Positions 8,095 through 64,000 of a stretch of DNA of 64,000 nt are shown piece after piece; position 1 is the stretch's first letter; each line of letters begins with the position of its first letter. Position numbers and translations under genes: made by a program. Source of the stretch: Mobula hypostoma (Eukaryota). Location of the stretch: contig NC_086107.1 in assembly GCF_963921235.1 (NCBI RefSeq), positions 105,526,001 through 105,590,000 of the forward strand, in the 5' to 3' direction. Under the pieces are notes generated by a model. It saw only the letters and a list, made by a program, of their open reading frames with translations, was not told where the DNA came from and searched no databases.

Positions 8095-8310
8095 AACACG
8101 AGGAAATCTGCAGATGCTGGAATTTGAAGCAACACACATAAAAGTTGCTGGTGAACGCAGCAGGCCAGGCAGCATCTCTAGGAAGAGGTACAGTCGACGT
8201 TTCGGGCTGAGACCCTTCGTCAGGACTAACTGAAAGAAGAGCCAGTAAGAGATTTGAAAGTGGGAGGGGAAGGGGGAGATCCAAAATGATAGGAGAAGAC
8301 AAGAGGGGAG
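8095..8310 (-). mobile_element. Penelope-like terminal repeat fragment with hammerhead motif
   Basis: Contains agtcCTGACGAagggtctcagcccGAAAcGTCgact (8192-8227, minus). The same family adjoins Penelope-type ORF ends at ~22140-22680 and ~36700-37220. Confidence 0.7.
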
Positions 8311-39500: not shown

Positions 39501-42500
39501 GTTTCACCAGGACATTGCACTCAGGACAACTGGAATCCATCAATGCTGGGTGATTATTGTTGGACACTTAAGGGAGAAGCCTCAGACATTGAGCACAAAT
39601 GAAAATCATCAACAAAACATTCTTAGCTTAGTTGAACTATTGCAAAGCGTCAGCACTGTTATACTATTAAATGCATTATATTCAATAAAAATTAATTTCT
39701 TTTTTTTCTCCAAATTCCTATGTGATACAAATAGCCTGAAATTACATTTGCGTTTGGCTTCAAGCGGTCTATCATAAGCAAAAAAAAATTCTGAGGAAGC
39801 AACACTAAAAAAAATTGTCATCTAGTGTTATTAATGTAGTGGTGTATTGAATTTTTGGCACAGACTCAGGCCACTCACCCAATGTCTTTGTTGATGTTTA
39901 CCTCCCCACAGATTCCACATTCTGTGACCCTGGTTTGATCCTGACCTCGGGTGCTGTCTACATGGAGTTTGCACATTCTCCCTGTGAGCACACGGGTTTC
40001 CCCCACACATCCCAACGACATGCAAGTCGGAAGAGCAGCTGGGCACTGCAAACTGTCCCTAGCGTGTAGGCGAGTGCTGGAATCTAGGGAGAACTGTTGG
40101 GAATTTGGGGAGAATAAAATGGGGTTGGTGTGGGATTGATGTGCATGGGTGATTTTGGGTCAAGGTGGATCCCATGGAGAGTGAAACATGATCTGCAGGA
40201 GGATCTCAATAGGTCAGACAGTAACCATGGAGTCAGAGACAGTAACTATGGACACTTGGGTCAAGACTTTCCACTGGACTAGATTCCATAGATTTGTTTC
40301 CACTTAATTACTTAACTAGGATGATAGATCTTAAAATCATGTAGTTATACAGTGGAGAGGATGGTGAAGAAAGCTTTTGGTATGCTGGCCTTTATTAATC
40401 AGAGCATGGAGTATAGGAGTTGGGATGTAATGTTGAAATTGTATAAGGCATTGGTAAGGCCAAATTTGGAGTATTGTGTACAGTTCTGGTCACCGAATTA
40501 TAGGAAAGATGTCAATAAAATTGAGAGAGTACAGAAGAGATTTACTAAAATGTTGCCTGGGTTTCATCTCCTAAATTACAGAGAAAGGTTGAACAAGTTA
40601 GGTCTTTATTCTTTGGAGCGTAGAAGGTTGAGCGGGGACTTGATAGAGGTCTTTAAAATTATGAAGGGGATTGAGAGAGGACGTGGATAGGCTTTTTCCA
40701 CTGAGAATGGGGGAGATTCAAACAAGAGGACATGAGTTGAGAGTTAAAGGGCAAAAGTTTAGGGGTAACATGAGGGGGAACTTCTTTACTCAGAGAGTGG
40801 TAGCTGTGTGGAACGAGCTTCCAGCAGAAGTGGTTGAGGTTCGATGTTGTCGTTTGAAGTTAAGTTGGATAGGTATATGGACAGGAAAGGAATGGAGGGT
40901 TATGGGCTGAGTGCAGGTCAGTGGGACTAGGATAGGGTAAGAGTTCGGCACGGACTAGAAGGGCCGAGATGGCCTGTTTCTGTGCTGTAATTGTTATATG
41001 GTTATACAGTGCAGAAAGAGGCCCTTAGATCCAACTGGTCCATGACAACCAAGGATTATGAGCCTATCAACAGTCTCTTAAATCTATAATAATTAAATCC
41101 TTCAGTTAGTCCTGACGAAGGGTCTCGGCCTGAAACGTCGACTGCGCCTCTTCCTATAGATGCTGCCTGGCCTGCTGCGTTCACCAGCAACTTTGATGTA
41201 TGTTTCTTAAATCTCCTGTCTCTACCACCACTCCTGACAGCATGTTCCCTGCACCTACCACCCTCTGTATAACAAAGCTTGCCTCAGACATCCCCCCTGT
41301 ACTTTTAAAGTTAGGCCTCCTCGTATTAGCCAGTTCTGCCCCGGGAAGAAGTCTCTGGCTGTCTACTCAATCTACACCTCTTATCATCTTGTACATCTCT
41401 ATCATGTCGCCTCTCATCCTCCTCCTCTTCAAAGAGAAAAGTCCCAGCTTGTGCAACCTATCCTTATCAGGCAGACTCTCTAATCCAGGCAGCACCCTGG
41501 TAAATCTCCTCTGTATCCTCTCTAAAGCTTACACATCCTTCCTATAATGAGGTGACCAGAACCGAACACAATACTCCAAATCTGGTCTAGCCAGGGTTTT
41601 ATAGAGCTGCAACATTATCTTGTCGCTCTTGAAGTCAGTCTCCCGACAAATGAAGGCTAACATGGCACGCACTTTCTTAACTACCCTATCAACTTGCATT
41701 GCAACTTTGAGAGATCAATGGACTTGGACCGCAAGATCTCTCTGTTCCACCACACTGCTAAGAATCCTGCCATTAACCCTGTATTCTGCCTTCAAGTTTG
41801 ACTTTCCAAAATGAATCACTTCACAATTCTCCAAATTGAGCTCCATCTGCCACTTAGCCCCGTTCTGCATCCTATCAATGTCCTGTTGCAACCTGCAACA
41901 ACCTTCTACACTATCAACAACACCTCCAATCAATATTGCTCTGTCTGCCCCCCCAGAATAAATGCTTCTGCTTTGTATCCAATCTGTCAAATAAGTAACA
42001 AGCAAACTAATTTTCTCAGACCGAGATGCAGTCAACAATCTCTGTATAGAAGGAAATCCACAAACCATCAGCTTCTCGGGATCCAATTACTTTGATTTTC
42101 CTTTCTCCACTTTCTTTGGAATCTGAAAGTAAAAAGTGTTTGATGATAAAATAGTAGTTGAGTGTGGAAAGTCTCCCAACTTCAAAGTGCATCCATATAA
42201 CACACAAGCACCCGCCACTGATCTGGTTTCCTCTCCATGAGCTGCTCCCCTATTGCCCAAAGCCTCAGATGAGGTTGGGATTAGATCCAACTTTCTCCCA
42301 GGACGCTGTGGCCCAAACCTGGTCTCTCCTGGGTGAGTGAGGGCCTTTGCTCTAGAGGTCAAACACGTGCCTAAGGGTCCAGGTTGGTGTCCACACCGAT
42401 CAGCTTCAACACAACTGAGCTTCCCATACCAAGGATGGGAGGGATGAAGATGTCCCTCTCCCCCACACTCTGCCCTCCTGGCTCATCAGATACAGGAACA

Positions 42501-45500
42501 GAGAGCCCAGCACTGACTCTGGTCTCACAGCCAATGCCAGTGGATCCCAACAGATTCCCAGAGTCATTAGTGCAATCGTCAATGGATTATTCACCAGTGA
42601 ATGTTACAGCAAGAGATTGAAATCATAAATATCGATACCTCGAGCTTCAGAGTGACTATTTCTTTCTGTAGAATCTGGGAAAGAAGGAAAAGAATTTCAG
42701 TTCACCAATCCCAGGGCGTTCTCTATGGTCATCATCAGTTCAGTTCTCAAATTCTCCCCCCATTTTAATGACACTTCACTGTAAGCTGGTGATGTATAGT
42801 TGACAGATCACAGAACATAGAAAAGTACAGCACAGTCCAGGCCCTTCAGCCCACAATGTTGTGCTAACCCTTCAACCTACCCCAAGATCAATCTTATCCT
42901 TTCCTCTCACATAGTCCTTCATTTGTCTTTCAACTATGTGCCTCAGAGTCTCTTAAATATCCCTAATATATCTCCAACTACCATCAATCCTGGCAGAGCA
43001 TTCCACGCAATTTCCACTCTCTGTGTATAAAAAACAACCTCTGACAATCCCCTGTACTTCCCCACAAACATGGGAGATCTGTTCCGTCCTGTATCCATTT
43101 TCAGCTTGGGAAATTATCTCCGGCTGTCCACTCTATCTATGCCTTCGGTGTACACCTCTATCACACCACCTTTAATCTCCTTCTTGTAGTTGGACCTCAC
43201 TTGAAGTATTGTGTTCAGTTCTGGTCACTTTATTATTGGAAGGATGAGGAAGCTTTAGAGAGGGTCCAGAGAAGATTTACCAGAATACTGGCTGGATTAG
43301 ACAGCATGTCTTATGAAGATATATTTTTCAAGCGAAGGCTTTTATTTAAGGAGCGAAGAGACATCTGGGTAGGATCCCTGTAAATCAACTCTGCACTCTC
43401 TCTAAAGCTTCTACATCCTTCCTATAAAGAAGTGAACAGAAATCAACACAATACTCTAAGTGTGGTCTAACCTGAGTTTTATAAGCTGCAACATTACCTT
43501 GTGGCTCCTGAATTGATCCCCCGACTAATTCTGCCTTCAAGTTTGACCTTCCAAAGTGAATAATTCACACTTTTCTGAGTTGAACTCCGTCTGCCATTTC
43601 TCAGCCTCTCCCGGAATAAATGCTTCTGCAACGTATCCAGTCTGTTCCCCATTCTATCTGATTCCTTGTGGATTCTGATGTCAAGTAACTAACCAGTGAA
43701 CTACTCCTCTCAGACCCAGGTTAGCTCAGTCAACAATCTCTGTATAGAAAGAAATCCACGAACCATCATCTTCTCGGTATCCAATCACTTTGATTTTCCT
43801 TTCTCCACTTTCTTTGGAATCTGAAAGTAAGAAGTGTTTGATTATAAAATGGAAGGTGAGTGTGGAAAGTCTCTCAGCTTCAAAGTGTATCCCTGTAACG
43901 TGTAACTATCTGTTTACACTCACACACGGCACTGCCACTGATCTGAGTACCTCCCCATAAGCTGCTCACCCATTGCCCAACGCCCCACCTGAGTTGGGAT
44001 TGGATCCAACTTTTTCCCAGGACACAGCGACCCGAATATCATCTCTCTGTGGCGAGTGAGAGTTTTCCCCTGGAGGTGAGACAGGTGTCTATGGGTCCCG
44101 GTTGGTGTCCACCCAAACTTGTCAGCTTCAACTCAGTTGAGTCTCCCAGACCAAGGAACCTTTGTCGGGGATGATGTTGTCCCTCTCTCACACACTCCAC
44201 CCTCCTGTCTGCTCAGATTCAGGAACAGGGCTCACAGTGTTGGGGTTTCCAGCCAAGGCCAATGGTTACCCACAGATTCCCAGGGTCATTAGTACAATCG
44301 TCAATGGATTGTTCACCAGAGAATGTGACAGCAAGAGATTGAAATCATAAATGTTGATACCTCGAGCTTCAGAGTGACTATTTCTTTCTGTAGAATCCGG
44401 AAAAGAAGGGAAAGAATTTCAGTTCACCAATGACAGGGCATTCTCTATGTCCAATGTCAGTTCAGTTCTCAAACTCTCACTCTCATTTTAATGACTTTTC
44501 ACTTTAAGCTGGTGATGAATTGTTCACAGATCATTGAACATATAACAGTCCAGTACAGTCCAGGAGCTTCAGCCCATAATGTTGTGCTAACCCTTTAACC
44601 TTCTCCAAAGTCAATCTTACCCTTTCTTCTCACATAGTCCTTCATTTCTTTCATCCATGTGCCTTAGAGTCTCTTAAATGTCTCTCTAACATTACCCCTA
44701 GCAGCGCATTCCACACTATTACCACTCTCTGTGTATGAAAACGAATCTCAGACATAATACACTCAATTTCGTTTCTAAAAGGGTTTATCTAACAAACTTA
44801 ATATTAAACACACAGCACATATTTTCCTTGCATGAATATAGCGATAAGTCAATTATCGGGGAAGACAGGGGAGCTTGAAGTAAGTGTTGAACGAACTTCC
44901 AGTAGAACTGATAGAGGCAGGTTCGTTATTATCATTTAAAGAAAAATTGGATAAGTATATGGACAGGAAAGGAATGGATGGTTATGGGCTGATTGCAGGT
45001 CAGTGGGACTAGATGAGAGTAGCGTTCGGCACGGACTAGAAGGGCCGAGATGGCCTGTTTCCGTGCTGTAATTGTTATCTGGTTATATGGTTATCCCCTT
45101 GTAGTTCCCCTCAAACACGTGAGTTTTGCTCCCTGAATTTTCCATTTCCACCTTGGGAAAATATCCTTGGCTGTCTACTCTATCTACACCTTTACTGTAC
45201 ACTTTGATCATAGCACCTCTTATCCTCATTCTTGTGGTTAGACAGCATTTGGAATATTGTGTTCAGTTCTGGGCACTTCATTGTTGGAAGGATGAGGAAG
45301 CTTTAGAGAGGGTGCAGAGAAGATTTACCAGGACGCTGGCTGGATTAGAGAGCATGTCTTATGAAGATATATTGATCAAGCGAATGCTTTTATCTAAGGA
45401 GCAAAGACATTTGGTACCATCCTTGTAAATCTTCTCTGCACTCCCTCTAAAGCTTCTACATCCTTCCTATAAAGAGGAGAACAGAAATCAACACAATACT

Positions 45501-48500
45501 CTAAGTGTGGTCTAACCAGAGGTTTTGTAGAGCTGCAACATTACCTTGTGGTTCTTGAACTCGATCCCCCGACTAATTCTGCCTTCAGGTTTGACTTTCC
45601 AAACTAAATCACTCCACACTTTTCTGAGTTGAACTCCATCTGCCATTTCTCAGCCTCTCCTGGAATAAATGCTTTTGCTTTGTATCCAGTCTGTTCCCCA
45701 TTCTACCTGATTCCTTGTGGATTCTGATGTCAAATAATTAACCAGTGAACTAGTCCTCTCAGACCCAGATTAGCTCAGTCAACAATCTCCGTATAGAAAG
45801 AAATTCACGAACCATCATCTTCTCGGTATCCAATCACATTGATTCTCCTTTCTCCAATTTCTTTGGAATCTGAAAGTAAAAAGTGTTTGATTATAAAATG
45901 GAAGGTGAGTGTGGAACGTCTCCCAGCATCAAAGTGTATCCCTGTAACGTGGAAATATCTGTTCACACTCACACACGCCATTGCCACTGATTTGAGTACC
46001 TCCCCATGATCTGCTCATCCGTTGCCCAACACCTCCGAGGTTGGGATTGGATCCAACTTTTTGCCAGGACACAGCGACCCAAATATGGTCTCTCTGGGGT
46101 GAGTGAGAGTCTTCCCCTGAAGGTGAGACAGGTGTCTATCTGTCCAGGTTGGTGTCCACCCAAACCCGTCAGCTTCAACTCAGCTGAGCCTCCCAGAGCA
46201 AGGAACCTTTGTCGGGGATGCTGTTGTCTCTCTCTCACACACTCCACCCTCCTGTCTGCTCAGATTCAGGAACAGGGCTCACAGTGTTGGGGTTTCCAGC
46301 CAAGGCCAATGGTTACCCACGGATTACCAGGGTCATTACTACAATTGTCAATGGATTGTTTACCAGAGAATGTTACAGCAAGAGATTGAAATCATAAATG
46401 TCGATACCTCGAGCTTCAGAGTGACTATTTCTTTCTGTAGAATCTGGAAAAGAAGGGAAAGAATTTCAGTTCACCAATGACGGGAAATTCTCTATGGCCA
46501 TTATCAGTTCAGTTCTCAAACATTCGCTCTCATTTTAATGACACTTCACTGTAAGTCGGTGACGTATAGTTGACAGATCACAGAACACAGAAAAGTACAG
46601 CACGGTTCAGGCCCTTCAGTCCACAATGTTGTGCTAACCCTTTCACCTACTCTAAGATCAATCTTACCCTTTCCTCTCGCAAAGTCCTTCATTTGTCTTT
46701 CAACTATGTGCCTCAGAGTCTCTTAAATATCGCTAATATATCGCCAACTACCATCAATCCTGGCAGAGCATTCCACGCAATTTCCACTCTCTGTGTATAA
46801 AAACCAACCTCTGACAATCCCCTGTACTTCCCCACAAACATGGGAGATCTGTTCCGTCCTGTACCCATTTTCAGCTTGGGAAATTATCTCCGGCTGTCCA
46901 CTCTATCTCTGGCTTCGGTGTACACCTCTATCACACCACCTTTAATCTCCTTCTTGCAGTTAGACCACACTTGGAGTATTGTGTTCAGTTCTGGTCACTT
47001 TATTACTGGAAGATTGAGGAAGCTTTAGAGAGGGTGCAGAGAAGATTTACCCAGATGCTGGCTGGATTAGAGAGCATGTCTTATGAAGATATATTGATCA
47101 AGCAAATGCTTTTATCTAAGGAGCAAAGACATCTGGGTAGCATCCTTGTAAGTTTTCTCTGCACTCTCTCTAAAGCTTCTACATCCTTCCTATAAAGAAG
47201 TGAACAGAAATCAACACAATACTCTAAGTGTGGTCTAACCTGTGTTTTATAAGCTGCAACATTACCTTGTGGTTCTTGAACTCGATCCCCCGACTAATTC
47301 TGCCTTCAGGTTTGACTTTCCAAAGTGAATAATTCACACTTTTCTGAGTTGAACTCCATCTGCCATTTCTCAGCCTCTCCTGGAATAAATGCTTCTGCAA
47401 TGCATCCAGTCTGTTCCCCATTCTGTCTGATTCCTTGTGGATTCTGATGTCAAGTAACTAACCAGTGAACTACTCCTCTCAGACCCAGATTAGCTCAGTG
47501 AACAATCTCTGTACAGAAAGAAATCCACGAACCATGATCTTCTTGGGATCCAATCACTTTGATTCTCCTTTCTCCACTTTCTTTGGAATCTGAAAGTAAA
47601 AAGTGTTTGATTATAAAATGGAAGGTGAGTGTGGAAAGTATCCCTGCTTCAAAGTGTATCCCTGTAATGTGTAACTATCTGTTCACACTCACACACGGCA
47701 CTGCCACTGATCTGAGTACCTCCCCATGAGCTGCTCACCCATTGCCCAACCACCTCCCTGAGGGTGGGATTGGATCCAACTTTTTCCCAGGACACAGCGA
47801 CCCGAATATGGTCTCTCTGTGGCGAGTGAGAGTTTTCCCTTGGAGGTGAGACAAGTGTCTATGGGTCCGGGTTGGTGTCCACCCAAACTTGTCAGCTTCA
47901 ACTCATCTGAGACTCCCAGACCAAGGAACCTTTGTCGGCGATGATGTTGTCCCTCTCTCACACACTGCACCCTCCTGTCTCCTCAGACTCAGGAACAGGG
48001 CTCACAGTGTTGGGGTTTCCAGCCAAGGCCAATGGTTACCCACGGATTCCCAGGGTCATTAGTACAATCGTCAATGGATTGTTCACCAGAGAATGTTACA
48101 GCAAGAGATTGAAATCATAAATATTGATACCTCGAGCTTCAGAGTGACTATTTCTTTCTGTAGAATCTGGAAAAGAAGGGAAAGGATTTCAGTTCACCAA
48201 TGACAGGGCATTCTCTATGTCCAATGTCAGTTCAGTTCTCAAACTCTCACTCTCATTTTTATGACTTTTCACTTTAAGCTGGTGATGAATTGTTCACAGA
48301 TCATTGAACATATAACAGTCCAGTACAGTCCAGGAGCTTCGCCCATAATGTTGTGCTAACCCTTTAACCTTCTCCAATGTCAATCTTACCCTTTCTTCTC
48401 ACATAGTCCTTCATTTCTTTCATCCATATGCCTTAGAGTCTCTTAAATGTCTCTCTAACATTACCCCTAGCAGCGTATTCCACACAATTACCAATCTCTG

Positions 48501-54500: not shown

Positions 54501-57500
54501 TGAATAATTCACACTTTTCTGAGTTGAACTCCATCTGCCATTTCTCAGCCTCTCCTGGAATAAATGCTTCTGCAATGCATCCAGTCTGTTCCCCATTCTG
54601 TCTGATTCCTTGTGGATTCTGATGTCAAGTAACTAACCAGTGAACTACTCCTCTCAGACCCAGATTAGCTCAGTGAACAATCTCTGTACAGAAAGAAATC
54701 CACGAACCATGATCTTCTTGGGATCCAATCACTTTGATTCTCCTTTCTCCACTTTCTTTGGAATCTGAAAGTAAAAAGTGTTTGATTATAAAATGGAAGG
54801 TGAGTGTGGAAAGTATCCCGGCTTCAAAGTGTATCCCTGTAATGTGTAACTATCTGTTCACACTCATACACGGCACTGCCACTGATCTGAGTACCTCCCC
54901 ATGAGCTGCTCACCCATTGCCCAACACCTCCCTGAGGGTGGGATTGGATCCAACTCTTTCCCAGGACACAGCGACCCGAATATGGTCTCTCTGTGGCGAG
55001 TGAGAGTTTTCCCTTGGAGGTGAAACAGGTGTCTATGGGATCGGGTTGGTGTCCACCCAAACTTGTCAGCTTCAACTCATCTGAGCCTCCCATACCAAGG
55101 AACCTTTGTCGGCGATGATGTTGTCCCTCTCTCACACACTGCACCCTCCTGTCTCCTCAGACTCAGGAACAGGGCTCACAGTGTTGGGGTTTCCAGCCAA
55201 GGCCAATGGTTACCCACGGATTCCCAGGGTCATTAGTACAATCGTCAATGGATTGTTCACCAGAGAATGTTACAGCAAGAGATTGAAATCATAAATGTTG
55301 ATACCTCGAGCTTCAGAGTGACTGCTTCTTTCTGTAGAATCTGGAAAAGAAGGGAAAGAATTTCAGTTCACCAATGACGGGACATTCTCTATGGCCATTA
55401 TCAGTTCAGTTCTCAAACCTTCGCTCTCATTTTAATGACACTTCACTGTAAGCTGGTGATGTATAGTTGACAGATCACAGAACATAGAAAAGTACAGCAC
55501 GGCTCAGGCCCTTCAGTCCACAATGTTGTGCTAACCCTTTCACCTACTCTAAGATCAATCTTACCCTTTCCTCTCACATAGTCCTTCATTTGTCTTTCAA
55601 CTATGTGCCTCAGTGTCTCTTAAATATCGTTAATATATCGCCAACTAGCATCAATCCTGGCAGAGCATTCCACGCAATTTCCACTCTCTGTGTATAAAAA
55701 CCAACCTCTGACAATCCCCTGTACTTCCCCACAAACATGGGAGATCTGTTCCGTCCTGTACCCATTTTCAGCTTGGGAAATTATCTCCGGCTGTCCACTC
55801 TCTCTACACCTTTACTGTACACTTTGATCATACCACCTCTTATCCTAATTCTTGTGGTTAGACCGCACTTGGAATATTGTGTTCAGTTCTGGTCACTTCA
55901 TTGTTGGAAGGATGAGGAAGCTTTAGAGAGGGTGCAGAGAAGATTTACCAGGACGCTGGCTGGATTAGAGAGCATGTCTTATGAAGATATATTGATCAAG
56001 CGAATGCTTTTATCTAAGGAGCAAAGACATTTGGTACCATCCTTGTAAATCTTCTCTGCACTCCCTCTAAAGCTTTTACATCCTTCCTATAAAGAAGTGA
56101 ACAGAAATCAACACAATACTCTAAGTGTGGTCTAACCTGTGTTTTATAAGCTGCAACATTACCTTGTGGTTCTTGAACTCGATCCTGCGACTAATTCTGC
56201 CTTCAGGTTTGACTTTCCAAAGTGAATAATTCACACTTTTCTGAGTTGAACTCCGTCTGCCATTTCTCAGCCTCCCCTGGAATAAATGCTTCTGCAATGT
56301 ATCGAGTCTGTTCCCCATTCTACCTGATTCCTTGTGGATTCTGATGTCAAATAATTAACCAGTGAACTAATTCTCTCTGAACCAGATTAGCTCAGTCAAC
56401 AATCTCCGTATAGAAACAAATCCACGAACCATGATCTTCTTGGGATCCAATCACTTTGATTCTCCTTTCTTCACTTTCTTTAGAATCTGAAAGTAAAAAG
56501 TGTTTGATTATAAAATGGAAGGTGAGTGTGGAAAGTATCCCGGCTTCAAAGTGTATCCCTGTAATGTGTAACTATCTTTTCACACTCACACACGGCACTG
56601 CCACTGATCTGAGTACCTCCCCATGAGCTGCTCACCCATTGCCCAACACCTCCCTGAGGGTGGGATTGGATCCAACTTTTTCCCAGGACACAGCGACCCA
56701 AATATGGTCTCTCTGTGGCGAGTGAGAGTTTTCCCTTGGAGGTGAAACAGGTGTCTATGGGTCCGGGTTGGTGTCCACCCAAACTTGTCAGCTTCAACTC
56801 ATCTGAGCCTCCCATACCAAGAAACCTTTGTCGGCGATGACGTTGTCCCTCTCTTACACACTCCACCCTCCTGTCTCCTCAGATTCAGGAACAGGGCTCA
56901 CAGTGTTGGGGTTTCCAGCCAAGGCCAATGGTTACCTACGGATTCCCAGGGTCATTAGTACAATCGTCAATGGATTGTTCACCAGAGAATGTTACAGCAA
57001 GAGATTGAAATCATAAATATTGATACCTCGAGCTTCAGAGTGACTGCTTCTTTCTGTAGAATCTGGAAAAGAAGGGAAAGAATTTCAGTTCACCAATGAC
57101 AGGGCATTGTCTATGGCCATCGTCAGTCCAGTTCTCAAACTCTCGCTCTCATTTTTATGACTTTTCACTTTAAGCTGGTGATGAATTGTTCACAGATCAT
57201 TGAACATAGAACAGTCCAGTACAGTCCAGGAGCTTCGCCCATAATGTTGTGCTAACCCTTTAATCTTCTCCAATGTCAATCTTACCCTTTCTTCTCACAT
57301 AGTCCTTCATTTCTTTCATCCATGTGCCTTAGAGTCTCTTAAATGTCACTCTAACATTACCCCTAGCAGCGCATTCCACACAATTACCAATCTCCGTGTA
57401 TAAAAACGAATCTCATACATAATACACTCAAAAAAGTTGCTGGTGAACGCAGCAGGCCAGGCAGCATCTCTAGGAAGAGGTGCAGTCGACGTTTCAGGCC

Positions 57501-60500
57501 GAGACCCTTCGTCAGGACCCCTAGCAAAGCATTCCACACAATTACCACTCTCTGTGTATAAAAACTAATCTCAGACATCCCCCTGTACTTCCCCTCAAAC
57601 ACGCAAGGTTTGCTCCCTCAATTTTCCATCTCCAGCTTGGGAAAATATCCCTGGCTGTCCACTCTCTCTACACCTTTACTATACACTTTGATCATACCAC
57701 CTCTTATCCTCATTCTTGTGGTTAGACCGCACTTGGAATATTGTGTTCAGTTCTGGTCACTTCATTGTTGGAAGGATGAGGAAGCTTTAGAGAGGGTGCA
57801 GAGAAGATTTACCAGGACGCTGGCTGGATTAGAGAGCATGTCTTATGAAGATATATTGATCAAGTGAATGCTTTTATCTAAGGAGCAAAGACATTTGGTA
57901 CCATCCTTGTAAATCTTCTCTGCACTCCCTCTAAAGCTTCTACATCCTTCCTATAAAGAAGTGAACAGAAATCAACACAATACTCTAAGTGTGGTCTAAC
58001 CTGTGTTTTATAAGCTGCAACATTACCTTGTGGTTCTTGAACTCGATCCTGCGACTAATTCTGCCTTCAGGTTTGACTTTCCAAAGTGAATAATTCACAC
58101 TTTTCTGAGTTGAACTCCGTCTGCCATTTCTCAGCCTCCCCTGGAATAAATGCTTCTGCAATGTATCGAGTCTGTTCCCCATTCTACCTGATTCCTTGTG
58201 GATTCTGATGTCAAATAATTAACCAGTGAACTAATTCTCTCAGAACCAGATTAGCTCAGTCAACAATCTCCGTATAGAAACAAATCCACGAACCATGATC
58301 TTCTTGGGATCCAATCACTTTGATTCTCCTTTCTCCACTTTCTTTGGAATCTGAAAGTAAAAAGTGTTTGATTATAAAATGGAAGGTGAGTGTGGAAAGT
58401 CTCCTAACATCAAAGTGTATCCCTGTAATGTGGAACTATCTGTTTACACTCACACACGTCATTGCCACAGATCTGAGTACCTCCCCATGAGCTGCTAACC
58501 CATTGCCCAACACCCCACCTGAGGTTGGGATTGGATCCAACATTTTCCCAAGACACAGCGACCCGAAGATGGTGTCTCTGTGGTGAGTGAGAGTTTTCCC
58601 CTGGAGGTGAGACAAGTGTCTATGGGTCCAGGTTGGTGTCCACCCAAACTTGTCAGCTTCAACCCATCTGAGCCTCCCATACCAAGGAACCTTTGTCGGG
58701 GATGATGTTGTCCCTCTCTCACACACTCCACCCTCCTGTCTGCTCAGATTCAGGAACAGGGCTCACAGTTTTGGGGTTTCCAGCCAAGGCCAATGGTTAC
58801 CCACGGATTCCCAGGGTCATTAGTTCAATCATCAATGGATTGTTCACCAGAGAATGTTACAGCAAGAGATTGAAATCATAAATGTCGATACCTCGAGCTT
58901 CAGAGTGACTATTTCTTTCTGTAGAATCTGGAAAAGAAGGGAAAGAATTTCAGTTCACCAATGACGGGACATTCTCTATGGCCATTATCAGTTCAGTTCT
59001 CAAACATTCGCTCTCATTTTAATGACACTTCACTGTAAGCCGGTGATGTATAGTTGACAGATCACAGAACATAGAAAAGTACAGCACGGTTCAGGCCCTT
59101 CAGTCCACAATGTTGTGCTAACCCTTTCACCTACTCTAAGATCAATCTTACCCTTTCCTCTCACATAGTACTTCATTTGTCTTTCAACTATGTGCCTCAT
59201 AGTCTCTTAAATATCGCTAATATATCGCCAACTACCATCAATCCTGGCAGAGCATTCCACGCAATTTCCACTCTCTGTGTATAAAAACCAACCTCTGACA
59301 ATCCCCTGTACTTCCCCACAAACATAGGAGATCTGTCCGTCCTGTACCCATTTTCAGCTTGGGAAATTATCTCCGGCTGTCCACTCTATCTCTGGCTTCG
59401 GTGTACACCTCTATCCACCACCTTTAATCTCCTTCTTGCAGTTAGACCACCCTTGGAGTATTGTGTTCAGTTCTGGTCACTTTATTACTGGAAGGATGAG
59501 GAAGCTTTAGAGAGGGTGCAGAGAAGATTTACCAGGATGCTGGCTGGATTAGAGAGCATGTCTTATGAAGATATATTGATCAAGCGAATGCTTTTATCTA
59601 AGGAGCAAAGACATCTGGGTAGCATCCTTGTAAGTCTTCTCTGCACTCTCTCTAAAGCTTCTACATCCTTCCTATAAAGAAGTGAACAGAAATCAACACA
59701 ATACTCTAAGTGTGGTGTAACCAGAGTTTTATAGGGCTGCAACATTACCTTGTGGTTCTTGAACTCGATCCCCCGACTAATTCTGCCTTCAGGTTTGACT
59801 TTCCAAAGTGAATAATTCACACTTTTCTGAGTTGAACTCCATCTGCCATTTCTCAGCCTCTCCTGGAATAAATGCTTCTGCAATGCATCCAGTCTGTTCC
59901 CCATTCTGTCTGATTCCTTGTGGATTCTGATGTCAAGTAACTAACCAGTGAACTACTCCTCTCAGACACAGATTAGCGCAGTGAACAATCTCTGTACAGA
60001 AAGAAATCCACGAACCATGATCTTCTTGGGATCCAATCACTTTGATTCTCCTTTCTCCACTTTCTTTGGAATCTGAAAGTAAAAAGTGTTTGATTATAAA
60101 ATGGAAGGTGAGTGTGGAAAGTATCCCGGCTTCAAAGTGTATCCCTGTAATATTTAACTATCTTTTCACACTCACACACGGCACTGCCACTGATCTGAGT
60201 ACCTCCCCATGAGCTGCTCACCCATTGCCCAACACCTCCCTGAGGGTGGTATTGGATCCAACTTTTCCCCAGGAAACAGACACCCGAATATGGTCTCTCT
60301 GTGGCGAATGAGAGTTTTCCCTTGGAGGTGAAACAGGTGCCTATGGGTCCGGGTTGGTGTCCACCCAAACTTGTCAGCTTCAACTCATCTGAGCCTCTCA
60401 TACCAAGGAACCTTTGTCGGCGATGATGTTGTCCCTCTCTCACACACTGCACCCTCCTGTCTCCTCAGACTCAGGAACAGGGCTCACAGTGTTGGGGTTT

Positions 60501-63500
60501 CCAGCCAAGGCCAATGGTTACCCACGGATTCCCAGGGTCATTAGTACAATCGTCAATGGATTGTTCACCAGAGAATGTTACAGCAAGAGATTGAAATCAT
60601 AAATATTGATACCTCGAGCTTCAGAGTGACTGCTTCTTTCTGTAGAATCTGGAAAAGAAGGGAAGAATTTCAGTTCACCAATCACAGGGCATTGTCTATG
60701 GCCATCGTCAGTCCAGTTCTCAAACTCTCGCTCTCATTTTTATGACTTTTCACTTTAAGCTGGTGATGAATTGTTCACAGATCATTGAACACAGAACAGT
60801 CCAGAACAGTCCAGGAGCTTCAGCCCATAATGATGTGCTAACACTTTACCCTTCTCCAATGTCAATCTTACCCTTTCTTCTCAAATAGTCCTTCATTTCT
60901 TTCATCCATGTGCCTTAGACTCTCTTAAATGTCGGTCTAACATTACCCCTAGCAGCGCATTCCACACTATTACCACTCTGTGTATAAAAACGAATCTCAG
61001 ACATCCCCCTGTACTTCCCCTCAAATACGCGAGGTTTGCTCCCTCAATTTTCCATTTCCAGCTTGGGAAAATATCCCTGGCTGTCCACTCTATCTACATC
61101 TTTACTGTACACTTTGATCATACCACCTCTTATCCTCATTCTTGTGGTTAGACCGCACTTGGAATATTGTGTTCAGTTCTGGTCACTTCATTGTTGGAAG
61201 GATGAGGAAGCTTTAGAGAGGGTGCGGAGAAGATTTACCAGGACGCTGGCTGGATTAGAGAGCATGTCTTATGAAGATATATTGATCAAGCGAATGCTTT
61301 TATCTAAGGAGCAAAGACATTTGGTACCATCCTTGTAAATCTTCTCTGCACTCCCTCTAAAGCTTCTACATCCTTCCTATAAAGAAGTGAACAGAAATCA
61401 ACACAATACTCTAAGTGTGGTCTGACCTGAGTTTTATAAGCTGCAACATTACCTTGTGGTTCTTGAACTCGATCCTGCGACTAATTCTGCCTTCAGGTTT
61501 GACTTTCCAAGGTGAATAATTCACACTTTTCTGAGTTGAACTCCGTCTGCCATTTCTCAGCCTCCCCTGGAATAAATGCTTCTGCAATGTATCCAGTCTG
61601 TTCCCCATTCTATCTGATTCCTTGTGGATTCTGATGTCAAGTAACTAACCAGTGAACTACTCCTCTCAGACCCAGATTAGCTCAGTCAACAATCTCTGTA
61701 TAGAAAGAAATCCACGAACCATCATCTTCTCGGTATCCAATCACTTTGATTCTCCTTTCTCCACTTTCTTTGGAATCTGAAAGTAAAAAGTGTTTGATTA
61801 TAAAATGGAAGGTGAGAAAGTATCCCGGCTTCAAAGTGTATCCCTGTAACGTGTAACTATCTGTTTACACTCACACACGGCACTGCCACTGATCTGAGTA
61901 CCTCCCCATAAGCTGCTCACCCATTGCCCAACACACCCGAGGTTGGGATTAGATCCAACTTTTTCCCAGGACACAGCGACCCGGATATCGTCACTCTGCG
62001 GCGAGTGAGAGTTTTCCCCTGGAGGTGAGACAGGTGTCTATGGATCCAGGTTGGTGTCCACCCAAACTTGTCAGCTTCAACTCAGCTGAGCCTCCCACAC
62101 CAAGGAACCTTTGTCGGGGATGATGTTGTCCCTCTCTCACACACTCCACTCTCCTGTCTGCTCAGATTCAGGAACAAGGCTCAGAGTGTTGGGGTTTCCA
62201 GCTAAGGCCAATGGTTACCCACGGATTCCCAGGGTCATTAGTACAATCGTCAATGGATTGTTCACCAGAGAATGTTACAGCAAGAGATTGAAATCATAAA
62301 TGTTGATACCTCGAGCTTCAGAGTGACTATTTCTTTCTGTAGAATCTGGAAAAGAAGGGAAAGAATTTCAGTTCACCAATCACAGGGCATTCTCTATGGA
62401 CATTATCAGTTCAGCTCCAAAACATTCGGTCGCATTTTAATGACACTTCACTGTAAGCTGGTGATGTATAGTTGACAGATGACAGAACATAGAAAAGTAC
62501 AGCACGGTCCAGGCCCTTCAGTCCACAATGTTGTGCTAACCCTTTCACCTACTCTAAGATCAATCTTACCCTTTCTACTACCATCAATCCTGCCAGAGCA
62601 TTCCACGCAATTTCCACTCTCTGTGTATAAAAACCAACCTCTGACAATCCCCTGTACTTTCCCACAAACATGGGAGATCTGTTCCGTCCTGTATCCATTT
62701 TCAGCTTGGGAAATTATCTCCGGCTGTCCACTCAATCTATGCCTTTGGTGTACACCTCTATCACACCACCTCTTATCCTCATTCTTGTGGTTAGACCACG
62801 CTTGGAATATTGTGTTCAGTTCTGGTCACTTCATTGTTGGAAGGATGAGGAAGCTTTAGAGAGGGTGCAGAGAAGATTTACCCAGACGCTGGTTGGATTA
62901 GAGAGCATGTCTTATGAAGAGATATTGTTCAAGCGAATGCTTTTATCTAAGGAGCAAAGACATCTGGGTAGCATCCTTGTAAATCTTCTCTGCACTCCCT
63001 CTAAAGCTTCTACATCCTTCCTATAAAGAAGTGAACAGAAATCATACAATACTCTAAGTGTGGTCTAACCAGAGTTTTATAGAGCTGCATCATTAACTTG
63101 TGGTTCTTGAACTCGATCCTGCGACTAATTCTGCCTTCGGGTTTGACTTTCCAAAGTGAATAATTTACACTTTTCTAAGTTGAACTCCATCTGCCATTTC
63201 TCAGCCTCTCCTGGAATAAATGCTTCTGCAATGCATCCAGTCTGCTCCCCATTCTATCTGATTCCTTGTGGATTCTGATGTCAAGTAACTAACCAGTGAA
63301 CTACACCTCTCAGACACAGATTATCTCAGTCAATAATCTCTGTATAGAAAGAAATCCACGAACCATCATCTTCTCGGGAACCAATCACTTTGATTCTCCT
63401 TTCTCCACTTTCTTTGGAAGCTGGAAGTTAAAAGTGTTTGATTATAAAATGGAAGGTGAGTGTGGAAACTCTCCCATCTTCAAAATGTATCCCTGTAACG

Positions 63501-63997
63501 TGCAGCTATCTGTTCACACTCACACACGTCACTGCCACTGATCTGAGTACCTCCCCATGATCTGCTCACCCATTGCCCAACACCGCACCTGAGGCTGGGA
63601 TTAGATCCAACTTTCTCCCGGGACACAGCGACCTGAATATGATCTCCCTGTGGTGAGTGAGAGTTTTCCCCTGGAGGTGAGACAAGTGTCTATGGGTCCA
63701 GGTTGGTGTCCAACCAAACTCGTCAGCTTCAGCTCATCTGAGCCTTCCATACCAAGGAACCTTTGTCGGGGATGATGTTGTCCCTCTCTCACACACTCCA
63801 CCCTCCTGTCTGCTCAGATTCAGGAACAGGGCTCACAGTGTTGGGGTTTCCAGCCAAGGCCAATGGTTACCCACGGATTCCCAGTGTCATTAGTACAATT
63901 GTCAATAGATTGTTCACCAGAGAGTGTGACAGCAAGAGATTGAAATCATAAATATTGTTACCTCGAGCTTCAGAGTGACTATTTCTTTCTGTAGAAT
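12386..63997 (-). CDS. bglap: Osteocalcin/bone Gla protein-like gene (MGP/BGP family) with a massively exon-amplified S-x-E prodomain; 5' end (signal peptide exon) outside the window
   Basis: Manual splicing on the minus strand: ~42 phase-1/phase-1 micro-exons, then a 76-bp exon and a 139-bp terminal coding exon. The C-terminus reads [78 protein letters not shown], ExxRExCE and CDxLAxxIGFQxAY match osteocalcin; PF...AN and the 76-bp exon size are MGP-like. The family assignment is secure; bglap versus mgp paralog is less so. Confidence 0.88.
13789..13864 (-). CDS. bglap: Propeptide exon (gamma-carboxylase recognition site plus furin site)
   Basis: 76 bp, attgttctag|...GAAAG|gtcaga, phase 1 to phase 2. 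Encodes (G)[24 protein letters not shown](R) and joins the terminal exon in frame. Confidence 0.95.
13985..15259 (+). mobile_element. Defective Tc1-like DNA transposon in the intron upstream of the propeptide exon
   Basis: ~200-bp terminal inverted repeats. Decayed transposase: [27 protein letters not shown]...[18 protein letters not shown]...PDLNPIEN...KGASTKY. Confidence 0.9.
17472..17683 (+). mobile_element. Short CR1 3' end inserted into an older repeat
   Basis: ttttttactcagagagtggttgg... ending in a ttctatgttctat tail. Confidence 0.7.
18277..18312 (-). CDS. Micro-exon type [13 protein letters not shown]
   Basis: 36 bp, ttccag/gtaata, phase 1-1. Confidence 0.8.
18429..18464 (-). CDS. 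Micro-exon type [13 protein letters not shown]
   Basis: 36 bp, attcag/gtagtg, phase 1-1. Confidence 0.8.
18700..19040 (+). mobile_element. Penelope-like retroelement RT fragment plus terminal repeat
   Basis: Frame reads [30 protein letters not shown] (Penelope RT motif DVxSLxTxIP), followed by a degenerate hammerhead-bearing repeat. Confidence 0.75.
19666..19716 (-). CDS. Micro-exon type C (short), [17 protein letters not shown]
   Basis: 51 bp, tttcag/gtttgt, phase 1-1. Confidence 0.78.
20984..21019 (-). pseudogene. Type A micro-exon [12 protein letters not shown] with mutated donor (GT>AT)
   Basis: Clear homolog of the other A exons, followed by 'atacta' instead of 'gta..'. Confidence 0.7.
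21163..21198 (-). CDS. Micro-exon type [13 protein letters not shown]
   Basis: 36 bp, ttttag/gtagct. Confidence 0.8.
21645..21758. repeat. 114-bp spacerless palindrome derived from the Penelope-associated repeat
   Basis: 57-bp arms with 3 mismatches, centred on gtcgac|gtcgac. Confidence 0.9.
23397..23742. repeat. 49-bp minisatellite, 7 copies, each with a CCAAT box
   Basis: CCAAT starts at 23421, 23470, 23519, 23568, 23618, 23667, 23716. Confidence 0.9.
24477..24512 (-). CDS. Micro-exon type [13 protein letters not shown]
   Basis: 36 bp, ttccag/gtatca. Confidence 0.8.
25245..25296 (-). pseudogene. 5'-truncated type C micro-exon ([17 protein letters not shown]); acceptor replaced by repeat DNA
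   Basis: Homologous to 27911-27967 with the gtttgt donor kept, but the first codons and the polypyrimidine acceptor are missing. Confidence 0.65.
27435..27470 (-). CDS. Micro-exon type [13 protein letters not shown]
   Basis: 36 bp, ttccag/gtaact. Confidence 0.8.
27591..27626 (-). CDS. Micro-exon type [13 protein letters not shown]
   Basis: 36 bp, ttctag/gtactt. Confidence 0.8.
27911..27967 (-). CDS. Micro-exon type [20 protein letters not shown]
   Basis: 57 bp, ttccag/gtttgt. Confidence 0.8.
28355..28396 (-). CDS. Micro-exon type D (unique), [14 protein letters not shown]
   Basis: 42 bp, atacag/gtgagt, phase 1-1, same D-S-x-E start. Confidence 0.75.
31666..31701 (-). CDS. Micro-exon type [13 protein letters not shown]
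   Basis: 36 bp, ttccag/gtatgg. Confidence 0.8.
31775..34051 (+). mobile_element. Young 5'-truncated CR1 LINE with uninterrupted RT frame
   Basis: The 736-aa ORF has [35 protein letters not shown] and FADD but no endonuclease domain. It ends in a (TTCTATGT)3 tail with candidate TSD TAATGTT at 31768-31774 and 34052-34058. Confidence 0.95.
34107..34142 (-). CDS. Micro-exon type [13 protein letters not shown]
   Basis: 36 bp, tttcag/gtaact. Confidence 0.8.
34420..35098 (+). mobile_element. Unclassified, apparently young retroposon 3' portion
   Basis: CpG-rich body, AATAAA and a (TAATC)3 tail; interrupts an older repeat; family not identified. Confidence 0.5.
35257..35681 (+). mobile_element. 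Internally deleted Tc1 element
   Basis: TA-flanked inverted termini (cagcaccgtgcaaaagt...acttttgcacagtacag). [18 protein letters not shown]...KAKCGHTKY is the Tc1 transposase C-terminus. Confidence 0.88.
36040..36590 (-). mobile_element. CR1 LINE 3' fragment
   Basis: ORF 36161..36463: [11 protein letters not shown]...[10 protein letters not shown]...RNFFAQKV. Confidence 0.85.
37767..37823 (-). CDS. Micro-exon type [20 protein letters not shown]
   Basis: 57 bp, ttccag/gttcgt. Confidence 0.8.
38408..38443 (-). CDS. Micro-exon type [13 protein letters not shown]
   Basis: 36 bp, tcacag/gtatca. Confidence 0.8.
38909..38944 (-). CDS. Micro-exon type [13 protein letters not shown]
   Basis: 36 bp, tttcag/gtaggt. 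Confidence 0.8.
39071..39827 (+). mobile_element. Chapaev3-type DNA transposon, deletion derivative
   Basis: CACT...AGTG termini flanked by TTA on both sides. Transposase motif [30 protein letters not shown]. Confidence 0.8.
40350..41006 (+). mobile_element. CR1 LINE 3' fragment
   Basis: ORFs 40352 and 40671 form a frameshifted CR1 ORF2 C-terminus; gttatatggttata tail. Confidence 0.88.
41108..41143 (+). ncRNA. Minimal type I hammerhead ribozyme motif (Penelope-associated)
   Basis: agtc-CTGACGA-agggtctcggcct-GAAA-cGTC-gact: conserved core, stem I agtc/gact, short stem II, palindromic ACGT stem III. Confidence 0.6.
41200..41925 (-). mobile_element. Degenerate CR1 fragment at the left edge of the tandem array
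   Basis: ORF 41715..42086: [11 protein letters not shown]...[19 protein letters not shown]. Confidence 0.8.
42066..63420 (-). CDS. 13 type C micro-exons (57 bp; consensus [19 protein letters not shown] or ...GYREDD), one per tandem unit
   Basis: Coordinates 42066-42122, 43764-43820, 45813-45869, 47533-47589, 49398-49454, 51121-51177, 52986-53042, 54708-54764, 56430-56486, 58294-58350, 60016-60072, 61720-61776, 63364-63420. All have a cag acceptor and a gttcgt/gtttgt donor and are open in phase 1. Confidence 0.78.
42639..63997 (-). CDS. 13 type A micro-exons (36 bp; [12 protein letters not shown] or [12 protein letters not shown]), one per tandem unit; two have a GG acceptor
   Basis: Coordinates 42639-42674, 44361-44396 (acceptor AG>GG), 46408-46443, 48131-48166, 49996-50031, 51719-51754, 53584-53619, 55305-55340, 57027-57062, 58892-58927, 60613-60648, 62310-62345, 63962-63997 (acceptor AG>GG). 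Confidence 0.78.
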
Positions 63998-64000
63998 CCG

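Follow-up and report, generated by a model that had tools for sequence, protein, structure and literature searches.

The exons of elastin and of the titin PEVK region are many and short, split a codon at one and the same place, and can be duplicated or skipped in frame. Host arrays for snoRNAs, such as SNORD116, consist of tandem kilobase units with small, non-coding exons that are spliced together, and their introns hold the product. Exons can also occur within macrosatellite units, and PMC4063668 gives LPA as an intragenic coding repeat. From this source we took the definition of the tandem array in an intragenic coding macrosatellite, with LPA KIV-2, a multi-exon VNTR, as type example: one gene contains head-to-tail units that measure at least 100 bp. 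Further marks of this kind of repeat are whole frame-keeping exons in every unit, splicing of these exons into RNA and a copy number that differs between individuals. In elephant shark, the acidic N-terminus of Sparc-L contains a 24-residue motif repeated 11 times and reaches an S-x-E density of 5.1 per 100 residues, more than any other protein in the study, according to PMC9122587, which also describes the reading-frame introns of SCPP genes as mostly phase 0.

Here we analyse a locus of Mobula hypostoma in which an earlier note had described a coding tandem repeat. The window, the whole stretch of DNA that was analysed, is 64,000 nt long. When array, gene, history and product are considered jointly, the repeat is probably a real intragenic coding macrosatellite on the minus strand of a single-copy, unannotated vertebrate gene.

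Structure and history of the array

A repeat search of the window found 12 in-register copies at a spacing of 1652-2047 nt. Unit number was established by exon scans and by a BLAST search in which a single unit was compared with the window and a further 60 kb, and this identified a tandem minus-strand array of 13 units of 1,652-2,047 nt in the window (U01-U13, 41985..64000). The array passes position 64000 and includes four further units, to position 71167 in extended coordinates. In the assembly it comprises 17 head-to-tail units inside one gene, over ~29 kb, with unit lengths of 1652-2056 nt. The 13 units of the earlier note were therefore correct for the window, but the array runs on beyond it.

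Each unit contains an A exon of 36 nt and a B exon of 57 nt, both phase 1-1, and contributes 31 codons in frame. The window holds 13 of each, all on the minus strand, and the true exon limits are the codon limits shifted by one base (G|AT...G|gt). Exons A and B lie at 42639..42674 and 42066..42122 in the oldest unit, U01, which is partial and ~76-80% like the other units (~76% in its introns). They are followed by 44361..44396 and 43764..43820 (U02), 46408..46443 and 45813..45869 (U03), 48131..48166 and 47533..47589 (U04), 49996..50031 and 49398..49454 (U05), 51719..51754 and 51121..51177 (U06), 53584..53619 and 52986..53042 (U07), 55305..55340 and 54708..54764 (U08), 57027..57062 and 56430..56486 (U09), 58892..58927 and 58294..58350 (U10), 60613..60648 and 60016..60072 (U11), 62310..62345 and 61720..61776 (U12), and 63962..63997 and 63364..63420 (U13). 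Exon A is an S variant in U08 and U09, and exon B of U12 ends in YREDD. All 34 exons of the 17-unit array are open and keep phase 1-1. Exon scans, phases and frames thus agree with the tandem two-exon units of 31 codons originally described. The same two peptides had also been assigned to every unit. Ten of the 13 window units encode the 12-residue A peptide exactly, the other three A exons being variants, while the 19-residue B peptide is exact in six of 13 B exons and not in the rest; both are exact together in 4/13 units.

GT donors are present at 26 of 26 exons in the window and 34 of 34 over the 17 units. AG acceptors precede every B exon (13/13 in the window, 17/17 overall) and most A exons (11/13 and 15/17); GG replaces AG at exon A of U02 (44396) and U13 (63997).

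The description of the units as nearly identical was overstated: the youngest blocks are ~2% apart, but introns are 86-99% alike among U02-U17 and the unit tree has three clades ~10-13% apart. Exon pairs differ between units at 0-12 of 93 nt. The youngest events are two- and three-unit block copies, now ~98% alike (97.8-98.3%), and the most similar blocks have 72-77 differing sites per 3.6 kb, with a longest exact run of 564 nt. A rough k-mer estimate puts the difference between the source species and its sister species at ~2%, about equal to that of the youngest blocks. A derived ending of exon B, SQEDH, is common to units of both clades.

Transposable-element debris is present in each unit, as had been proposed, and includes a LINE 3'-end sequence resembling the one in the RT-bearing, CR1-like element at 31721-34059. 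The young unit has no exon C and carries a CR1-like LINE tail in its place; in U10 this 3'-end fragment, sense to the gene, lies at 57230..57560 on the minus strand, and homology to the old units resumes after it, just past the old exon-C donor. Local alignment of the LINE tail with the 3' end of the 31721-34059 element scored 29, compared with 11.6 +/- 1.7 (maximum 18.5) for 200 shuffles and 10 for the reverse complement. The RT open reading frame of this element matches RVT_1 only, and an 8-nt tail repeat, (CTATGTTT)5, lies at 34021-34059. CR1 elements end in octamer repeats. A LINE insertion begins 18-20 nt upstream of the acceptor of the old exon A at 31666..31701. Intron 2 of every unit also contains a palindromic, dispersed MITE-like element with two inverted arms (57719..58059 in U10), and a very high-copy short element (57410..57539) occurs only in the 1865-nt units U05, U07 and U10.

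We infer the following order of events. The tail of a CR1-like LINE would have come to occupy the place of exon C in one module, giving rise to a 1.7-kb A-B unit. This unit would then have been duplicated into the three types that are now ~10-13% apart. Blocks of two or three units may subsequently have been copied through unequal crossing-over, a mechanism which fits the dimer and trimer block structure, and the shared SQEDH ending suggests some exchange between units. The outcome would be the present 17 units (13 in the window), together adding up to 527 very hydrophilic residues. The loss of an exon at a LINE insertion, the split into unit types and the copying of two- and three-unit blocks would thus all still be readable at this locus.

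The host gene and splicing of its exons

The array sits within one minus-strand gene of at least 92 kb. In coordinates counted from the window start, this gene covers no less than 18.3-110.6 kb, and a candidate signal-peptide exon near 125 kb is its probable start. It consists almost entirely of diverged copies of a C-A-B module, in which exons C and A are 36 nt long and exon B is 57 nt long. Since exons C, A and B are all phase 1-1, any copy number keeps the reading frame. There is another young array 26 kb beyond the first. Genome-wide, 26 of 27 matches to the exon-B pattern fall in C45:105551260-105628681 on the minus strand; the 27th is a chance match.

The diverged, progenitor-like copy reported near 37600-38500 was recovered at 37.7-38.9 kb as exons C (38909..38944), A (38408..38443) and B (37767..37823). 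Exon scans located further old exons on the same strand: A at 31666..31701, 27435..27470 and 24477..24512, B at 27911..27967, C at 27591..27626 and 21163..21198, and an A copy with a broken donor (AT) at 20984..21019. A short B-like exon (..IGLGRDD) with the same G|gtttgt donor is located at 19666..19707. The last recognisable exon C is at 18429..18464 and the last recognisable A-like exon at 18277..18312. No homologue was found among 1.84 billion protein representatives. The window also contains no DEAD-box motifs and no Pfam match that would indicate ddx47; a Helicase_C exon lies on the plus strand 16 kb before the window start.

Splicing was investigated with Logan contigs aligned at 88% likeness, which yield no copy number and in which runs X9-X12 are labelled RNA-like by an automatic guess. 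Contigs with a joint from 58350 to 58892 skip 541 nt, with plus-strand ends CT..AC that correspond to GT..AG on the minus strand. This coincides exactly with the predicted A-B intron, intron 1 of U10 (58351..58891), and uses the exon A donor at 58892|58891. The joint was found in one contig of X9, two of X10 and four of X12, covering two species and two studies, and in no contig of the DNA run X5. With an exon A of 36 nt, each side of the joint is limited to 21-30 nt, and at an alignment likeness of 88% the splice may belong to any of several units. One X12 contig reads from B through an A variant to B, matching old exons near 99-102 kb. Within the young array, the basis for a B-to-A join is a single 13-letter loose end in X12, at 57063, which corresponds to the end of a REDD-type exon B ahead of exon A. 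Low-depth retention of introns was also observed in the RNA-like runs. The earlier note had made its coding claim depend on transcripts that include array exons, and in view of the A-B junction contigs it is not refuted on this point. The gene is without detectable relatives, yet spliced in RNA-like contigs of two species.

Selection and alternative explanations

The old exon copies are under purifying selection (pN/pS 0.14-0.62), with pN/pS of 0.25 for paralogous B exons (pS 0.54), 0.14 for C exons (pS 0.55) and 0.62 for A exons. The young array has a pN/pS of 1.01, indicating no codon-level constraint. A comparison of exon and intron rates, suggested in the earlier note, showed that exons vary less (variable columns 19/93 versus 497/1608, Fisher p 0.036; mean pairwise difference between units 0.047 versus 0.100). 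However, intron 1 is as uniform as the exons over its first 150 nt (pi 0.036), and low exon divergence need not therefore be due to selection.

These results would also be expected if the gene were real but its young units were mostly neutral passengers, that is, weak and largely skipped cassette exons from a recent, unselected expansion with little change to the protein. The pN/pS of 1.01 and exons that are no more uniform than the adjacent intron agree with this, as do the dead acceptors in 2/17 A exons, the donors short of consensus (G|gtatc, G|gttcgt) and the very short exons. However, the selected old exons carry equally weak donors, and all 34 frames are open. The A-B joint contigs, moreover, align across the 5' portion of exon B, which distinguishes the young from the old type, whereas an old-type contig was clipped there (X10 loose end at 58330). 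We therefore consider passenger status for the young units unlikely.

It is very unlikely that the assembly over-expanded or mis-joined the array and that the true copy number is much lower. The 29-kb array does exceed a typical accurate long read. However, all units and blocks differ from one another, the closest blocks being 97.8-98.3% alike, the unit tree is structured and accompanied by unit-specific insertions, and DNA contigs from a second species cover 30/30 bins of the unit. Finally, a host transcript that does not code for protein and whose exons serve only as spacers, like those of intronic snoRNA or miRNA host arrays, would account for the low-depth intron retention in RNA-like runs and for the good conservation of intron 1 between units, but is extremely improbable given the single phase and frame across all exons, the synonymous bias of old exon copies (pN/pS 0.14-0.25 at pS ~0.55) and the lack of any Rfam family at gathering score in 17000-64000. 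A coding macrosatellite in a protein-coding gene is the explanation we retain.

The predicted product and comparison with known systems

The gene is predicted to encode a very acidic, serine-rich repeat protein. The 527-residue array segment is very hydrophilic (GRAVY -1.82), rich in Ser, Glu, Arg and Asp, and has a pI of 5.3 and 62 S-x-E sites (11.8 per 100 residues). The candidate first exon (L015:993-1050), with the sequence MRSLLLFALLGLVVHTYCG, has a phase-1 donor (G|gt), the hydrophobic core typical of a signal peptide and a TATA-like box ~75 nt upstream; between it and the repeats there are only TE open reading frames. Judged by its motifs, the product may be a secreted, disordered phosphoprotein modified by a Golgi kinase at Fam20C-type S-x-E sites. 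The length of the predicted product, and so its charge or ion-binding capacity, would scale with unit number.

A broader and doubtful possibility is that this orphan gene is restricted to one lineage and encodes a secreted acidic protein that can be hyper-phosphorylated, and that the gene arose de novo out of a single 43-residue module of three exons and is still growing by macrosatellite amplification in two separate young arrays. Its product might then be an independently evolved matrix or secretion protein that binds ions in an SCPP/SIBLING-like manner, encoded away from the sparc-L locus, with a length and charge that are copy-number polymorphic within and between close species. If the product is secreted and phosphorylated, the gene would show how acidic proteins of matrix or secretion can emerge away from the SCPP cluster, and would offer a natural length-variant series for testing how repeat number tunes function.

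Among the known systems, SNORD116 differs in that the old Mobula exons show coding constraint and no Rfam family reaches its gathering score in 17000-64000. The symmetrical mini-exons resemble those of elastin and titin PEVK, but the composition of these proteins is unrelated to that of the Mobula gene, and we know of no young kilobase-unit array with TE-filled introns in either.

The predicted product would resemble the acidic secretory calcium-binding phosphoproteins (SCPP/SIBLING) and Sparc-L in being acidic, disordered and rich in S-x-E, in its candidate signal peptide and in the raising of acidity by amplification of a short motif. The S-x-E density of the predicted array segment (11.8 per 100) is more than twice that of elephant-shark Sparc-L (5.1), the richest protein of the SCPP comparison in PMC9122587. 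However, the predicted Mobula protein has no sequence similarity to this group and no P/Q- or Y-rich region, each of its repeats is its own exon pair, and its C, A and B exons are all phase 1-1 rather than bounded by phase-0 introns. None of the 11 genome matches to SPARC_Ca_bdg is on contig C45, so the gene is not located beside sparc-L/SPARCL1.

LPA KIV-2 likewise has a kilobase intragenic tandem unit with whole frame-keeping exons, and its protein length follows unit number. The Mobula unit is 1.65-2.06 kb long with two exons of only 36 and 57 nt, and encodes 31 residues predicted to be disordered, in contrast to the folded kringle of LPA. Its units are also much more diverged (86-99%), with a dimer and trimer higher order. 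The Mobula array would thus provide a clean non-human case of a protein lengthened by the copying of kilobase units with whole exons.

Coding units of the young array

A repeat search of the window, C45:105526001-105590000, found 12 in-register copies with a start-to-start spacing of 1652-2047 nt, and a scan with the exon sequences placed 13 copies of exon A (36 nt) and 13 of exon B (57 nt) at 42066-63997, every one of them on the minus strand. Chance cannot account for this array, which is real; units of this length escape Tandem Repeats Finder, whose longest period is 500. Splice limits are shifted one base past the codon limits at both exon ends (cag/ATTC...GAG/gtat and cag/ATTCC...ATG/gttcgt), so that both exons are symmetrical (phase 1-1) with lengths divisible by three, and each unit therefore adds 31 codons. 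This agreed with the earlier note, which had described a tandem array of two-exon units of that coding length. The unit peptides it gave were exact only in part: the 12-residue exon A peptide in 10 of the 13 A exons in the window and the 19-residue exon B peptide in six of 13, with variants in the remainder. Units differ by N or S in exon A and by SQEDH, YREDD or SREDD in exon B. Donors were GT at all 26 exons in the window, and acceptors were AG at 13/13 B exons and 11/13 A exons, with GG instead in exon A of units U02 (44396) and U13 (63997). The count of 13 units held within the window, but the array continues past it. In the 60 kb of flank covered past the window end, from an assembly of 3.48 Gb, four further units extend to 71167 in window-based coordinates, giving a total of 17 units (U01-U17) over about 29 kb.

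The unit at 57020-58960 was aligned at 88% likeness to assembled contigs of sequencing runs X9 and X10 (organism A) and X12 and X5 (organism B; X5 is DNA). None of the runs is recorded as RNA; X9-X12 are presumed RNA by a computational guess, which extends to four small runs under one organism label and a single run under another, closely related one. A joint from 58350 to 58892 omits 541 nt with GT..AG ends on the minus strand, exactly the predicted A-B intron, and was present in one contig of X9, two of X10 and four of X12, and in none of the DNA run X5. The RNA-like contigs agree with the earlier reading of the units as carrying exons of a spliced transcript. With an exon A of 36 nt, each side of the joint spans only 21-30 nt; the contigs do not separate the units or count units per transcript. 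One X12 contig reads B, then 38 letters as an A-type exon like that at 99103, then B, an order in which the old, diverged exons also stand in the genome. A loose end of 13 letters at 57063, also in X12, reads as the last part of a REDD-type exon B ahead of exon A. In X10 a contig of the old B type is clipped at 58330, the point of difference between young and old types; contigs extending to the joint are therefore young-type in that part. In X9, X10 and X12 contig word depth was far higher in exon than in intron bins, and X5 showed a flat profile; this contrast was given no weight as evidence, as contig depth cannot rank parts of a gene.

Old modules, transposons and the surrounding gene

Outside the array, diverged copies of exons A and B that share its phase and splice pattern occur on both sides, from ~18.3 kb to 110.6 kb. 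In seven old modules a third exon, C (36 nt, DSxENESGPDxK), lies 116-465 nt upstream of exon A, so the ancestral module was C-A-B, of 12+12+19 residues. The array therefore belongs to a larger gene, 92 kb or more in length. The exon B core pattern, with at most two mismatches, matched the genome 27 times, 26 of them at this locus on the minus strand; the 27th, without exon features, was set aside as chance. Among the old paralogous exons, pN/pS was 0.25 for B (pS 0.54), 0.14 for C (pS 0.55) and 0.62 for A. Changes are thus mostly synonymous, so the module codes for protein and is constrained. Two copies of exon A have decayed, at window-based 80008-79973 (flanking stretch L010) and at window 21019-20984. 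One of them has lost its acceptor and carries an in-frame stop and the other has a broken donor, so modules have also been shed in the old part of the gene. Candidate terminal exons were listed for the 3' end, none of them convincing.

A second young array, also on the minus strand, lies at C45:105616235-105623877 (window-based 90235-97877; stretches L011-L012) and holds five B exons at 1550-1559-nt spacing. Its four full 1.55-kb units are 97.7-98.2% alike, and B, with its 19-residue peptide, is the only recognisable exon in them. The unit of a sixth B exon, at 90291, is only ~66% like the others. This array is a macrosatellite in the same gene as the first.

Units of the first array run in the order exon A, an intron of 533-542 nt, exon B and a second intron of 1018-1421 nt. 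Among the dispersed repeats in intron 2 is a palindromic element, at 57719-58059 in U10. It occupies the same place in every unit, with two inverted arms of ~100-170 nt, and looks MITE-like because its copies in the genome align to both arms, in opposite orientation. A fragment of intron 2 resembles the 3' end of an RT-bearing LINE at window 31721-34059 (plus strand; 742-residue open frame with an RVT_1 domain; 8-nt tail repeat (CTATGTTT)5), with a local alignment score of 29 against 11.6 +/- 1.7 in 200 shuffles, and this fits the CR1 debris that the earlier note saw in the units. Their LINE tail ends at the expected exon C site, and homology to the old modules restarts a few bases past the old exon-C donor; the young unit is therefore a module without C. 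An RT domain was looked for in a dispersed copy of the transposon part of the unit (stretch L002), and none was found. The LINE at 31721-34059 is antisense to the gene and starts at most ~20 nt from the acceptor of an old exon A at 31701, which the insertion may cripple. A very high-copy short element, with contig word depth in the millions in a DNA run, lies at 57410-57539 and at 8132-8226, 20238-20325, 22203-22279, 36732-36788 and 41109-41194. Within the array it is limited to U05, U07 and U10, and so marks the youngest block duplications.

Neither DEAD-box motifs nor a Pfam match placed ddx47 in the window, and a Pfam search found no helicase in 59 window frames with a length of 100 aa or more or in 148 shorter ones (48-99 aa) at 1-19 kb. 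The only matches were the LINE RT, the remnant of a Tc1/Sleeping-Beauty HTH domain and two chance hits below threshold. The remnant, of a transposase, lies at 14305-14457 on the plus strand (Pfam HTH_SB, E 1e-8, under the curated cut-off). A Helicase_C exon at C45:105509620-105509781, 16 kb before the window start, probably belongs to the helicase gene called ddx47 in the earlier note, with its core outside the window. As this exon is on the plus strand, the helicase gene and the repeat gene would be convergent.

Divergence and history of the units

The units had been described as nearly identical, which went too far: introns are only 86-99% identical among U02-U17, U01 is ~76% like the rest, and the tree holds three clades. 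These comprise U03, U05, U07, U10, U12 and U16; U02, U04, U06, U08, U09, U11, U13 and U17; and U14 and U15. The first two clades alternate for most of the array length. Closest relatives form blocks, with the dimer U04-U05 97.9% like U06-U07 (72 mismatches in 3588 nt) and the trimer U06-U08 98.0% like U09-U11. No two blocks match throughout, exact runs being 564 nt at most, which speaks against duplication by the assembly. SQEDH, a derived exon B ending, is common to mid-array units of both main clades, which points to some exchange between units. The units would have diverged early into types, and blocks of two and three units would then have been copied, as unequal crossing-over would do.

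Within the young array pN/pS was 1.01. In the comparison of exons with introns that the earlier note proposed, exons vary less (mean pairwise difference 0.047 vs 0.100; variable columns 19/93 vs 497/1608, p 0.036), but the first 150 nt of intron 1 equal the exons in uniformity, so this contrast alone is no proof of selection on the young exons.

Predicted product and known systems

A candidate first coding exon lies upstream of the repeats on the minus strand at L015:993-1050 (window-based 125050-124993), an ATG exon reading MRSLLLFALLGLVVHTYCG. It ends G/gtaggc in phase 1, with a codon split identical to that of all repeat exons, and a TATA-like box ~75 nt before the ATG and a CpG-richer stretch accompany it. 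Its predicted peptide has a textbook signal-peptide shape; the remaining exons that the signal-peptide scan brought up were rejected for poor donors or a poor hydrophobic core. Between this exon and the repeats there are only LINE and Penelope-like open frames. One frame in the long first intron (L014:62-664, minus strand) has a GIY-YIG domain (E 9e-5) and is a putative Penelope-like element. Together the 17 units could add 527 residues, of which Ser makes up 19%, Glu 16%, Arg 14% and Asp 11%, with a GRAVY of -1.82, a pI of 5.3 and 62 S-x-E sites (11.8 per 100 residues). Judged from these motifs, the product would be secreted, disordered and open to Golgi-kinase phosphorylation, with a charge that would rise with unit number.

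Pfam, Rfam and profile searches found no homologue or known RNA family of the gene. For frames in and around the repeats Pfam returned no domains other than those of transposons, and Rfam gave no family at threshold for 17000-64000. Among proteins of 127-2000 residues, a profile of frames around exon B had no match; against 1.84 billion representatives it gave four weak matches (E 4e-7 to 5e-4). The three examined are unrelated Ig/FN3-like repeat proteins, and the fourth has 4975 residues. The Pfam and homology queries were stop-to-stop frames, and the spliced protein, with its exons joined, may yet belong to a known repeat family. A literature search with four repeat peptide strings returned no paper.

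An SCPP gene is ruled out by structure and place. SCPP reading-frame introns are mostly phase 0 (PMC9122587), whereas those here are phase 1, and of the 11 SPARC_Ca_bdg matches genome-wide none is on contig C45, which carries this gene. Among known kinds, intragenic coding macrosatellites come closest; their type example is LPA KIV-2, whose units measure 5.6 kb and number 1-40 per allele (PMC11462820; PMC4063668). Three of the four defining features of this kind are found here, the fourth being variation between individuals. New are the gene itself and its mini-exon module, the transposon-linked loss of an exon prior to amplification, and the presence of two separate young arrays within one gene.
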